64,000 nt of DNA from Myxococcota bacterium (GTDB taxonomy: Bacteria; Myxococcota_A; UBA9160; UBA6930). Of the stretch, positions 19,422 to 60,594 are shown piece after piece; position 1 is the first letter of the stretch, and each line of letters starts with the position of its first letter. Both the position numbers and the translations under genes were made by a program. The notes under the pieces were generated by a model. It did not search any database, was not told where the DNA came from, and saw only the letters and a list, made by a program, of their open reading frames with translations. The stretch spans positions 5,088,001-5,152,000 of the forward strand of contig OZ245002.1 in NCBI GenBank assembly GCA_965223415.1, written 5' to 3'.

Positions 19422-19465
19422 GCAACGGATCGCGACCGTCCTCCGGCCTGGGCTAGCTTCGCGCG

Positions 19466-20368
19466 ATGGCAGAGAACGCTCCGGCGACCGCCTACCGCAC
19501 CTTCGTCAGCTACATCGACCGCACACGCGAGTTCTACGCGGCCCAGGGCTACGACCGGCCCTACCAGTGGGCCCATCACGACGAGGTGCCCTTCGCCCCC
19601 TTGCCGAAGCTTCTTGCGGAGTGCCGCGTCGCCCTGGTGACGACGGCGAACCCTGCCCTCGAGGCACCGCGGAAGAAGGGCTCCCTGCGCGGCGAGCAGC
19701 CGGTCTGGTCCGCGTCGGTCGAGCCCGCACCGGAGCGGCTCTCGACCCAGCATCTCTCGTGGGACAAGGAGACGACCCATACCGACGACGTGGAATCCTT
19801 CCTGCCCCTCGCCGCGCTCGCGGGCTTCGCGGCGGAAGGCCGGATCGGCGGCGTGGCCCCCCGCTTCCACGGCATCCCCACCGACTACAGCCAACGCAGC
19901 ACGGTCGAGAAGGACGCTCCGGAGCTGCTGCGCCGCTGCCACGAAGACGACGTCGACGTGGCGCTGCTCGTGCCCCTGTGACCGGTCTGCCACCAGACCG
20001 TGAGTCTGGCCGCACGTCACCTGGAGGCGAACGGCATCCCCACCGTCGTCATCGGCTCGGCCCGCGACATCGTGGAGGAGTGCGGCGTGGCGCGCTTCCT
20101 GTTCAGCGACTTCCCCCTCGGCAATCCCTGCGGCGTGCCCTGGGACCGGGACATGCAGCGCGCGATCGCGGGTCACGCCCTCGACCTGCTCGAGAGCACC
20201 ACCCTGCCCCGAACCACCGTGCAGACCCCGTTCCGCTGGAGCGGAGACGCCTCCTGGAAGGAACGCTACGCCCGGGTGGACCCGGAGCAGGCCCTCGCCC
20301 TGCGGCGGGCGGGCGAGGCCCGACGTACCGCCCAGGCGAAGGCCAAGGCGAAGGGCGGCTCCGCATGA
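19466..20368 (+). CDS. Selenoprotein of the glycine/sarcosine/betaine reductase B (GrdB/PrdB-like) family; Sec at TGA 19979-19981
   Basis: ORFs 19466-19981 and 20000-20368 are in frame. Readthrough gives DVALLVPL-U-PVCHQTVSLAARHLEANGIPTV (UxxC), and a SECIS-like hairpin follows. Confidence 0.88.
19988..20014 (+). promoter_or_regulatory. Bacterial SECIS-like hairpin
   Basis: TGC-CA-CCAGAC-CGTGA-GTCTGG-CC-GCA; the upper stem starts 11 nt after the UGA. Confidence 0.7.
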
Positions 20369-57847: not shown

Positions 57848-58564
57848 ATGCCCGGCCTCGCCCACGTGCTGCTCCTCGTGCTCCCCGCCACCTGCGGCGG
57901 GGCGGCGGCATGGATCGCCTACCTGCGCTGGAAGGACCGCCGCACCCCGGAGCCCTGGCCCCTCATGTTCGGCGCCGCGCTCCTGGGCGCCGGCGCCATG
58001 CTGCTCGCGCACCTCGGCTACCGGGCCCTGGACGGCGTGGGCCTCCAGGCGAGCTGGGCGATGCTGACCGGCCCGCTGCCCCGGGCCTGGGCCGGCGCCC
58101 TGGCGATCGGAGCGGTGGAGGAGGCCGCCAAGCTGGTCCCGGTGCTGCCCTTCGTCTTCGTCACCCATCGCTTCGACGAGCTGTGGGACGGCCCGGTGTA
58201 CGCGGGCGCCTGCGCGGTGGGCTTCGCCGTGGCCGAGGCCGTGCTGCTGGCGGCCCTCGGCGAGATCGGCGTCACCTCCACCCTCGCCCGCGCCGCCGCC
58301 GCTCCGCTCACCCACGCCGTGTTCGCGGGGCCCTGGGGGCTCGGCCTCGCGTACACCGTGCTTCGGGGCGCGCGCTGGGCCTTCCCGCTGGGCTTCGCCG
58401 TCTCCGCGGCCGCCCACGGTGCCTACGACCTGCTGCTCGCGCGCCCCGGCCTCCAGCTCTGGGCGGCGGCCCTGGTCGCGGCGCTCTGGCTGCTGTGGAT
58501 CGCGGTCGCCTCACACCTCACCCGAGAGCGGCGGCGCCACCCGCGGCCAGACTCACACCGATGA
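57848..58564 (+). CDS. PrsW family intramembrane glutamic protease
   Basis: DRRTPEP, VEEAAK, GFAVAE, HAVF and HGAYD motifs. Confidence 0.85.
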   Translation: MPGLAHVLLLVLPATCGGAAAWIAYLRWKDRRTPEPWPLMFGAALLGAGAMLLAHLGYRALDGVGLQASWAMLTGPLPRAWAGALAIGAVEEAAKLVPVLPFVFVTHRFDELWDGPVYAGACAVGFAVAEAVLLAALGEIGVTSTLARAAAAPLTHAVFAGPWGLGLAYTVLRGARWAFPLGFAVSAAAHGAYDLLLARPGLQLWAAALVAALWLLWIAVASHLTRERRRHPRPDSHR

Positions 58565-58630
58565 GGCCCCCGTCGGGGCCCGGCTGCCACCGATGAGGCG
58601 CCCGTCGGGGCCCGGCTCACAGCGATGAGG
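58556..58630. repeat. 32-bp tandem repeat, about 2.3 copies, at a convergent gene junction
   Basis: CACCGATGAGGC(C/G)CCCGTCGGGGCCCGGCT at 58556 and 58588, partial copy at 58620. Confidence 0.85.
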
Positions 58631-59716
58631 AGTCGCCCGGCGACTTCGCCATCAATCGCTTGGCGAGGACCGGGACCAGGGGACGCATCAGCCGCCCGGC
58701 CAGACGACCGAGCCGCCCGGTGGGCGCCGTCTCACCCGCCGAGCCGTAGGCGTCGATGCCGAGTTCCTCGCGCAGGTCGGCGGAGACGAGCTTCACCGGG
58801 GTATCGAGGGGGATGCCGGTGCCGTCGGCGATCCGCACCATGCGCTGGAAGTTGCCGACGACGCCCGCCGCATCGACCGTGGCTGCGTCACCCACCGCCG
58901 CGCGAAGGGATTCGCGCGCGCGACCGATGGCGTCCTCCTCGCCGCCGACGACCGCCTCGGCGAAGCGCACCAGCTCCGGCCCGTGGGCGACGCCGCTCTC
59001 CGCCGCGTCGCCACTCGTCACGCCGCTCACGTCGAGCGTCCGCCCTTCCATCTCGCCGCCCGCACGGAGCAGCACCGCGTGGGAGCTGGTTCAGTAGAAG
59101 CAGTCGTTCAGGGCGGAGACCCGCCCGGCGAGGAGCTCGATCTGCTGCCGATCGAGGGCTCGCCCCTCGGACCAGGTCGGCACGCCGACCGCCCACATCG
59201 GAACGTACTGGGCCGCCGAGAGCGACTGCAGCGCCCGCACCGCATCCGGCACGAGGCTGAGCGCGCGGACCACGTTGGCGGACTGCTTGCCCGAGAAGAG
59301 ATCGCTCTCCTTCGCACCCGCCTTGCCGGACGCGATCATCGGCACCCAGGCGGTCTCGGTCTCGAGGGCCTCGGGGCGGTAGCCGGAAGCCGTGCCCGGC
59401 TCCGGGATCGGCAGCGTCTCCGGCGCCAGGCCGAGGCCGCGATGGAAGGAGTCGATGCTGATCACCGACACCACCACACCCAGGAGCTCCACATAGTGGC
59501 CGTCCGAGAGGCCCTGGGCGGCCAGCTTCTGGACCCAGCTGCCGGAGAGCCGGGACGCGTCGGTGACGAGCCGGTGCACCGTGTCGATCGCCGCATCCGG
59601 CAGCACGCTCCCCTCGGCGTGCTCGTGCTCGCCAGGGCGAGCCAGTAGGCGCGATGGGCCTCGGGGATCTCGGGACGGACGGGCCACGGCGTCGTCTCGT
59701 AGGCGAAGCTCGACAT
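58617..59716 (-). pseudogene. AhpD/CMD-like selenoprotein (CxxU; Sec at TGA 59093-59091) with a frameshift near 59630
   Basis: In-frame readthrough gives IELLAGRVSALNDCFY-U-TSSHAVLLR into ORF 58617-59075. The N-terminus MSSFAYETT...AYWLALA is in a different frame from the body. Confidence 0.75.
59059..59083 (-). promoter_or_regulatory. SECIS-like hairpin
   Basis: mRNA CCC-A-CGCGG-UGCUGCU-CCGUG-C-GGG; the inner stem begins 11 nt after the UGA. Confidence 0.55.
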
Positions 59717-59814
59717 GGGCCGAGCATAGCGTCCTGCCCGCTGCCTCCGTCCCAGGGGGGTAGACAGGGGAAGAAACCGGCGCGTAGGATGGCCCGCTCC
59801 CAAGGAGGATCCCG

Positions 59815-60594
59815 ATGCGCATGCTGCTTCGACTGCCCCTGCTCTGCCTCCTGCTCGCGCTGACCCCGGCCACGAGCGCAATGGCGGGCCCGCTGCTCTC
59901 GGCGACCTGGCGGGGCGCCATGCCGCTCTCTGCGTACCGGCTCACGACCGGCGCCGGAACCCTCCAGGCCAGCGGCTGGGCGTCCGGAGGATCGGCCCAC
60001 GTTTCGCTCACGATCCCGACCTTCACGACGACCCGCTTCGTCACCAGCACCGTGCCGACGGCCATCGTCCGCCAGCACCTCCGCGGCAGCCAGACGATCG
60101 CGTTCGGTCCCGGCGGCGCCGTGGCGAACCAGGCCTTGAGCGCCACGATCGACGTGTCCCTCGCCATCGCTAGCGGCTTCCGCCTCTTCACCCTGCCCAT
60201 GGCCATCGGCCTCAGCCAGACCCCGACCGCCACCGGCTTCAACCCGTTGATCGGTCAGATCACGGTCGTGAACCAGTTCCTCGGCTGGACCACGGGGAGC
60301 TTCGCGAGCCCCGTGACCTTCAGCGGCATCTCCTACGGCAGCTACGTCAGCCGGGGCTCGAACCGGCTCACGGCCAGCGGCGGGGGCACACTGACGCTGA
60401 TCGGCCCCTCCGTCACGAACGTCACCATCCAGGGGCAGCCCAACCGCCACGACCCGAGCGTCACCCGCCTCACCCTGACCTTCGCGCCCGGCCCGGGCCC
60501 CGGCGGCCCCCAGCCCGCGATCCCGGAGCCCGCCGCCGCCCAGCTCGTGCTGGGCGCCCTCGCGCTCCTGGGCCTGCTCCGCCGAGCACGCTGA
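59815..60594 (+). CDS. PEP-CTERM sorting-domain protein
   Basis: Signal peptide, Thr/Gly-rich body and IPEPAAAQLVLGALALLGLLRRAR. Confidence 0.85.
   Translation: MRMLLRLPLLCLLLALTPATSAMAGPLLSATWRGAMPLSAYRLTTGAGTLQASGWASGGSAHVSLTIPTFTTTRFVTSTVPTAIVRQHLRGSQTIAFGPGGAVANQALSATIDVSLAIASGFRLFTLPMAIGLSQTPTATGFNPLIGQITVVNQFLGWTTGSFASPVTFSGISYGSYVSRGSNRLTASGGGTLTLIGPSVTNVTIQGQPNRHDPSVTRLTLTFAPGPGPGGPQPAIPEPAAAQLVLGALALLGLLRRAR

Follow-up and report, generated by a model that had tools for sequence, protein, structure and literature searches.

The Sargasso Sea survey of 2005 (Zhang, Fomenko and Gladyshev, 2005; PMC1088965) already described selenoproteins carrying a CxxU motif in an AhpD-type domain. 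It includes a family called "hypothetical protein 1", to which the 2005 text assigns no known function, and which corresponds to NF041238 according to a 2026 review (PMC13188914). The GOS survey of 2008 (PMC2398784) distinguished two groups, AhpD-like 1 (COG2128) and AhpD-like 2 (pfam02627). These groups resemble NF041238 in having CxxU within an AhpD/CMD domain, and they are described there mostly from uncultured marine and environmental bacteria. However, they are distinct from it, since the 2026 review lists TIGR01926 and PF02627 separately from NF041238.

Several AhpD-like proteins have solved structures. The single-domain chains (6k40, the AhpD of D. radiodurans, as well as 2oyo, 2pfx, 2prr and 3c1l) show the same fold as the modelled C-terminal lobe of the NF041238 family, with Z scores of 14.6-14.8, and the AhpD of M. 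tuberculosis (1knc, 1gu9) also matches this lobe, at Z 8.6. The E...CxxC...H active-site pattern is common to these proteins and to the family. In contrast with single-domain AhpD, the family has selenocysteine (Sec) in place of the second cysteine and adds a predicted AhpD-like N-terminal lobe of about 160 residues with a CxLC motif, together with a basic C-terminal tail. No gene for an AhpC partner adjoins it, an AhpC/TSA-type neighbour being present at only one of 20 family loci. Finally, Sestrin2 (5t0n, 5dj4) is a single polypeptide with two AhpD-like helical lobes, an arrangement that predicted models suggest for the family as well. It differs in being a eukaryotic leucine sensor devoid of Sec and is only 10% identical (5t0n_A). 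In the papers searched, we found no literature tying sestrin to the NF041238 family.

The locus considered here lies on the minus strand of a window of 64,000 nucleotides, the window being the whole stretch of DNA that was analysed. Like other NF041238 members, the window copy has the CFYUT motif, a Sec TGA, a hairpin downstream of it and the C-terminal region; unlike them, it has no in-frame counterpart of profile positions 1-56, and its first 28 codons are out of frame. We consider it probable that this copy corresponds by position to a known NF041238 selenoprotein gene, as its ortholog, and that it is now, most likely, a recent pseudogene after a deletion of 124 nucleotides.

Family membership and selenocysteine codon

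On the minus strand, one reading frame closes at TGA 59093-59091 (...QQIELLAGRVSALNDCFY). When this codon is read as U, 157 further codons follow, and the translation ...VSALNDCFYUTSSHAVLLR... runs in frame into the open reading frame 58617-59075. The coordinates and strings of the first-pass annotation are right for these frames. The main-frame coding part located 5' of the Sec codon (59094..59633, GEHEH...ALNDCFY) holds the remainder of the N-terminal lobe and the first half of the catalytic AhpD-like lobe. The Sec TGA itself (59091..59093), within C-F-Y-U-T-S-S-H, is followed by the rest of the coding sequence including the basic C-terminal tail (58620..59090, supported by translation, profile and alignment) and by the stop TGA of the main frame (58619-58617). 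A convergent gene for a PrsW-family protease is the neighbour of the locus (window 57848-58564).

The read-through protein scores 381.3 bits (E 5e-114) with NF041238.1, [quoted passage not shown], an NCBIfam equivalog model of 357 positions whose curated threshold is 175 bits. When the genome is searched with the same model in six frames, the locus scores 372.3 bits. The Pfam CMD domain (PF02627) is also matched, with 25.2 bits for a gathering threshold of 23, whereas TIGR00777, the model of AhpD proper, gives 10.7 bits (cut-off 191.95) and TIGR01926 32.9 bits (cut-off 81.8). As judged from these profiles, the protein has a predicted AhpD-type redox centre, yet it is not AhpD itself. Together with the alignment on 6k40, these scores uphold the proposal of the first-pass annotation that an AhpD-type CxxU protein continues in frame past the TGA. 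That annotation also called the selenoprotein hidden, which holds for ordinary gene callers but not for the family, which was published as early as 2005 and is curated as NF041238. Since curation already covers its CxxU motif and its use of Sec, the locus brings little new biology in this respect.

The Sec codon is conserved far beyond the window. The six-frame NF041238 search covered 41 genomes, namely the source genome and 40 relatives. Matches over the cut-off occur in 27 genomes and number 41, each of them (41/41) with exactly one in-frame TGA. In homologous copies from public metagenome contigs, TGA stands at the Sec codon in 27 of 27. The CFYUTSSH motif, with its histidine four residues past U, recurs in all 23 copies from relatives and in all 27 metagenome copies, and a homolog with cysteine at the Sec position, P0010 (CFYCTSAH), was also found. 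Hence the conservation of the Cys/UGA position, which the first-pass annotation had put forward as a check, is now established on these copies. Among the 120 database matches listed, most homologs are "hypothetical proteins" of about 247 residues spanning half of the query, and five of the seven homolog sequences inspected stop at ...CFY, because gene callers terminate at UGA. It had been pointed out that homologs might end at CFY and be followed by an unrelated gene; the opposite is seen, with conserved coding sequence past the TGA.

A SECIS-like hairpin (59055..59073) follows the Sec codon. Its conserved stem of 7 base pairs (59073-59067 with 59061-59055) closes a 5-nucleotide loop, CGUGC (59066-59062), and is separated from the TGA by a spacer of 17 nucleotides. 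The stem is 99.4% paired over 23 relatives and, counted by cells, 98.5% paired over 50 sequences (47 distinct), and the second loop position is a G in 50 of 50. Over the 47 distinct sequences, compensatory double changes are observed in three of the seven stem pairs, for example from C-G to A-U in 12 sequences. The covariation score was reached by none of 500 shuffles, and controls slid along the alignment were 28-58% paired. Pairing of the stem is linked with correlated amino-acid changes (L..G vs M..I); changes of this kind, imposed by the pairing, favour a constraint acting on the RNA. Thus, the stem-loop that the first-pass annotation placed after the TGA is indeed there, but not at the position given: the stem that begins 11 nucleotides downstream of the TGA (CGCGG..CCGTG) is specific to the minimum-energy fold of the window sequence itself and is not conserved. 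An Rfam scan of 58500-59900 returned nothing above chance (best E 1.8).

The genome also encodes the machinery needed for Sec insertion. ARAGORN detects a tRNA-SeC (tca), and selB (267 bits, cut-off 242), selA (497 bits, cut-off 268) and selD (253 bits, cut-off 125) are all present.

Predicted architecture of intact members

An intact member of the family has about 400 residues. Its UGA would be recoded by SelB and tRNA-Sec by means of the hairpin located 17 nucleotides downstream, and the redox motif of AhpD would take the form E...C-x-x-U-x-x-x-H, with Sec at its second position. Indeed, in a profile alignment, E236...C248-F-Y-U251-T-x-x-H255 falls on the active-site E/C/C/H of the solved AhpD 6k40. 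By homology with AhpD, the predicted cycle would alternate between a selenol/thiol and a selenenylsulfide, as in a reductase of the peroxide or disulfide type.

The ortholog L005, from the same genus, is full length and was modelled with AlphaFold from 24 sequences (pLDDT 92.4, pTM 0.92). The best whole-chain match of this model is Sestrin2 (5t0n_A; Z 17.3, rmsd 3.3, 242 aligned residues, model positions 1-345), and single-domain AhpD-like chains (6k40, 2oyo, 2prr) superpose on model positions 160-356 with the Z scores of 14.6-14.8 quoted above. When the N-terminal lobe is modelled alone (pLDDT 92.9) and compared with 48,161 chains, the top eight matches all have AhpD, CMD or sestrin folds (Z 9.2-5.1), the next one being at 4.3. 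Comparison of the N-terminal and C-terminal halves with hhalign gave no sequence similarity, only a boundary artefact. These models suggest that family members fold as two AhpD/CMD-like lobes within a single chain, in a sestrin-like arrangement.

The C-terminal lobe carries CxxU, and the N-terminal lobe carries an invariant C-x-L-C of its own. In the L005 model, the two motifs are placed alike, C-x-L-C at the start of helix 54-61 and CxxU at the start of helix 249-265. All 24 full-length homologs in the alignment (24/24) have an N-terminal C-x-(L/F/Y)-C, which is deleted in the window copy; the N-terminal CxxC is likewise found in every metagenome copy that extends far enough (22/22), five more being cut by contig ends. 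This invariance is an observation made on the present alignments rather than a published criterion. A scan of 46 ORFs flanking 20 homolog loci, along with two neighbour genes from the window, revealed no recurrent partner gene; a GST gene is found at one locus, as is the AhpC/TSA neighbour mentioned above. The invariant CxLC of the N-terminal lobe and the predicted sestrin-like two-lobe fold are the only points that we regard as mildly new. Together, they offer a concrete, model-based hypothesis on the function of the family.

The 124-nucleotide deletion

The frame opened by ATG 59716 starts with MSSFAYETTPWPVRPEIPEAHRAYWLALAS... and is distinct from the Sec frame. It agrees with the first 28 residues of the orthologs and, as counted by eye, is identical at 16 of 28 positions to the N-terminus of the same-genus sequence L008 (MPGFAYETTPWQIREDLPNAYRAEWQKL). 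This N-terminal remnant consists of the ATG and 27 codons (59633..59716, MSSFAYETTPWPVRPEIPEAHRAYWLAL). Neither the remnant alone nor the 139-aa shifted ORF, in which only 28 residues are homologous, matches an NCBIfam model at E<=10. Homology of the ATG frame ends at CT|GGCGAGCAC, between 59634 and 59633, which agrees with the frame shift that the first-pass annotation had placed at about 59620-59636. On the other side of this junction (59633..59634, the exact breakpoint being ambiguous by a few bases), the main frame resumes with GEHEHAEGSV..., at the equivalent of G70 of L005. The absent part therefore corresponds to residues 29-69 of L005.

Compared with the same-genus orthologs L005 and L007, each of which is 124 nucleotides longer at this point, the window copy has a single gap of 124 nucleotides, or 41 codons plus one nucleotide. 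The extra segment that the first-pass annotation attributed to homologs is thus present in both, its size is now fixed, and the comparison bears out the internal deletion, with its frame shift, that had been proposed. In agreement with this, the in-frame match of the window copy to NF041238 extends over profile positions 57-356 only, no single frame covering the full length. Of the 41 family matches in the six-frame search of 41 genomes, 39 begin at profile position 8 or before. The only other late starter besides the window copy, a match in G025 (profile 54-357), was considered as a natural short form and rejected, a run of N lying directly upstream. Besides, the PrsW-family neighbour is common to the L005, L007 and L008 loci, with 78-81% identity in a tblastn search of the neighbours, so that the three copies are positional orthologs of the window gene.

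The lost segment contains 11 of the 43 family-invariant columns (G32, W34, G37, R40, R48, A50, C53, C56, R59, A62 and P65), C53-x-L-C56 among them. In the L005 model, residues 29-69 correspond to helices 37-50 and 54-61. Hence, the loss of 124 nucleotides strips from the N-terminal lobe 41 codons encoding two predicted helices and the C-x-L-C motif, and at the same time shifts the frame.

As to the origin of the deletion, the window junction reads CT-GGCGAGC-AC, with a single copy of GGCGAGC. The orthologs have GAC|GGCGA(A/G)CAC at the 3' breakpoint and CTTGCC(C/T), not CTGGCGAGC, at the 5' breakpoint. If the ancestor had encoded Leu-Ala(-Ser) there as CTG GCG (AGC), a direct repeat of 4-7 nucleotides with copies 124 nucleotides apart would plausibly have been present, and its spacing would account for the +1 shift. 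In same-genus genomes and in a protein search, the identity of relatives at the protein level did not exceed about 75%, and the best match of a metagenome scan for a closer relative is 56% identical. Programmed frameshifting was considered and rejected: no slippery heptamer is seen by eye at 59650-59620, and the missing codons are in any case absent from the DNA.

Expected product and fate of the broken copy

A -10-like box, TATGCT, is located at 59728-59723, six nucleotides 5' of ATG 59716, where the first-pass annotation had noticed it. A TAnnnT box with the same 6-nucleotide spacing before the start codon is found in five of six same-genus sequences (the window copy, L005, L007, L008 and L012); the sixth, L018, has a GGAGG-type leader in its place. 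A scan for sigma-70 promoters and terminators gave no site on the minus strand and did not report the TATGCT box, because no -35 match accompanies it. As read from the sequence, this arrangement suggests a leaderless mRNA starting at ATG 59716. Translation from this codon would enter the shifted frame and stop at TGA 59464-59462, giving a product of 84 residues; as a consequence of the frame shift, the Sec part would not be made. None of the public runs listed for this stretch is an RNA run.

Beyond the deletion, signs of decay are few. The main frame is free of additional stops and frameshifts, the SECIS stem is preserved, and of the 32 family-invariant residues outside the lost segment 31 are retained, P151 to A being the sole change (by eye from the alignments). 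Pairwise dN/dS values are 0.17-0.20 between the window copy and its orthologs vs 0.09-0.13 between orthologs, all with dS near 1, close to saturation. The loss of function would thus be recent or incomplete, or a shorter product may still be used. We favour the first of these possibilities: most likely, this is a pseudogene of recent origin, and the lesion is probably an ordinary and recent pseudogenising deletion.

It is also conceivable, if unlikely, that the gene is truncated but alive, an internal start giving a shorter selenoprotein that lacks all or part of the N-terminal lobe and works through a self-sufficient C-terminal lobe. Candidate starts are GTG 59687, the GTG that follows GAGGGGAGC near 59607, and re-initiation at GTG 59465-59463, an in-frame codon that overlaps the TGA of the shifted frame (59462..59464) in GTGA (59465-59462). 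Such a product would be consistent with the superposition of model positions 160-356 on complete AhpD-like proteins of about 190 residues, with an intact downstream frame, Sec codon and SECIS, with the near-complete retention of invariant residues, with a dN/dS far under 1 and with the GTGA overlap itself. However, low dN/dS values may merely mean that the deletion is recent, and no natural short form was seen among the family matches in relatives, 39 of 41 of which begin at profile position 8 or before, the G025 exception being explained by its run of N. In addition, the N-terminal lobe packs on the C-terminal lobe in a confident single-chain model, so that its removal would probably be destabilising, and the conserved promoter-start arrangement favours initiation at ATG 59716.

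A bolder version of this idea, which we judge improbable, is that NF041238 proteins are bacterial sestrin-like enzymes with two redox centres, in which the C-x-L-C of the N-terminal lobe relays electrons to, or resolves, the C-x-x-U of the C-terminal lobe. The window copy would then be a natural knock-out of the N-terminal lobe, yielding a C-lobe-only selenoprotein by termination-reinitiation at GTGA 59465-59462. If this were true, it would represent an evolutionary intermediate between double-domain and single-domain AhpD selenoproteins.

Much the same deletion would be seen if it were an artefact of assembly or consensus, or a minority variant in an organism whose real gene is intact; misassembly had indeed been raised as an alternative in the first-pass annotation. 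The assembly of the window was built on runs that resemble community samples. Yet two independently assembled contigs span 59634|59633 without any difference or indel row, X1 (8086 nt, sample S1) and X4 (3461 nt, depth about 80, sample S2 of the same study), although one of them, possibly the best one, may come from the source sample of the window itself and contigs drop rare variants. With the junction bridged in two samples, misassembly is unlikely. No contig carrying an intact form across the junction, nor any alternative one over this stretch, was seen in assemblies of public runs, and a clean loss of 124 nucleotides with good homology on both sides is atypical of homopolymer-type errors. 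We hold this explanation to be very unlikely. The 124-nucleotide deletion is very probably real, and is seen in the source genome only.

Finally, that TGA 59093 is a true stop, with 58617-59075 a separate gene or non-coding, has a negligible probability: standard callers do end homologs at ...CFY, hence the fragments of about 247 residues that make up most of the 120 matches listed, but one HMM covers both sides of the TGA, which is kept in 41/41 and 27/27 copies with conserved coding sequence beyond it, and a Cys-form homolog, a covarying hairpin and a full Sec machinery all speak for recoding.

Read as a recent pseudogene, the locus bears on two general questions. For annotation, standard gene callers split or truncate such genes, and here a Sec TGA and a genuine frameshift, which occur in one gene, need to be separated. 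For selenoprotein turnover, the locus would show a selenoprotein lost through a deletion while an intact paralog persists in the same lineage, in keeping with the theme of PMC1794560, the "balance between selenoprotein loss and gain". This paralog (G000:C1:546560-547582) scores 361.9 bits over profile positions 5-355, with one TGA and the same hairpin, and its presence plausibly lets the genome tolerate the loss.

The first-pass annotation had counted a second Sec gene within the 64 kb, and this gene is indeed found at 19457-20365 on the plus strand, with its TGA at 19979 (...LLVPLUPVCHQ...). It resembles PrdB/GrdB but reaches only 82 bits, the cut-off of that model being 300. Three Sec-TGA genes were thus noticed in the genome, two of the NF041238 family and one PrdB-like.

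Paralogs and paired copies of the selenoprotein gene

The genome to which the window belongs (G000) also carries an intact paralog of the NF041238 family at G000:C1:546560-547582 (L002:1477-2538), scoring 361.9 bits, with one TGA and the motif CFYUTVSH. Of its flanking genes, one encodes an FAD-dependent aromatic-ring hydroxylase, the other a sulfotransferase. As in this genome, both paralog types are present in five of five same-genus genomes. In two loci of relatives, NF041238 copies are found as adjacent pairs, divergent in L013 (G020:C12:603855-606096) and tandem in L031, and every family copy in these loci has a TGA and a hairpin of its own. In the public protein record P0008, a full-length sequence named "alkylhydroperoxidase-related (seleno)protein", the Sec position is occupied by V (CFYVTSSH), possibly the way in which the protein collection stores U.

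selD and a second candidate Sec gene

A profile search of the genome located selD on the minus strand at G000:C1:562702-563610. Because no stop interrupts its frame, selD of this genome does not encode a Sec-containing SelD; this gene and the intact paralog are separated by only about 15 kb. Within the window, a second candidate Sec gene is found on the plus strand at 19457-20365, with an in-frame TGA at 19979-19981; it is probably the "hidden selenoprotein 1" of the first-pass annotation. Read-through gives ...DVALLVPLUPVCHQTVSL..., with a UxxC motif at the TGA. PrdB/GrdB "selenoprotein B" models align to the product on both sides of the TGA, and TIGR04483 matches residues 46-261 with 82 bits, under the model cut-off of 300.

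Flanks of the broken gene

The PrsW-like and selenoprotein genes converge, and a tandem array of three copies of a 32-nt unit (58533-58630; 74-79% identity to the reference copy) bridges the space between their 3′ ends, overlapping both stop regions. Each unit contains a GGCCCC..GGGGCC-type palindrome, and the array may act as a bidirectional terminator; however, a terminator scan of the region found no T-run at the array.

On the other side, a 259-aa ORF (59815-60594, plus strand) diverges from the selenoprotein gene, and the sole sigma-70-like site found by scanning the region (59761-59790, plus strand) faces it. Its product has a signal-peptide-like N-terminus and a C-terminal tail (PEP...hydrophobic...RRAR) that, judged by eye, looks PEP-CTERM-like; a Pfam scan gave no match at E<=1e-6. 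No counterpart was found beside the orthologs in the three same-genus loci L005, L007, and L008. Whereas this PEP-CTERM-like gene stands upstream of the selenoprotein gene in the window, the position is held in G003 by an ORF resembling, by eye, a MerR-family regulator (L005:3415-4023, minus strand). The latter lies about 850 nt upstream of the intact G003 ortholog, on the same strand, and its product carries a C-terminal Cys cluster (…MSCRCPSLEDC…).
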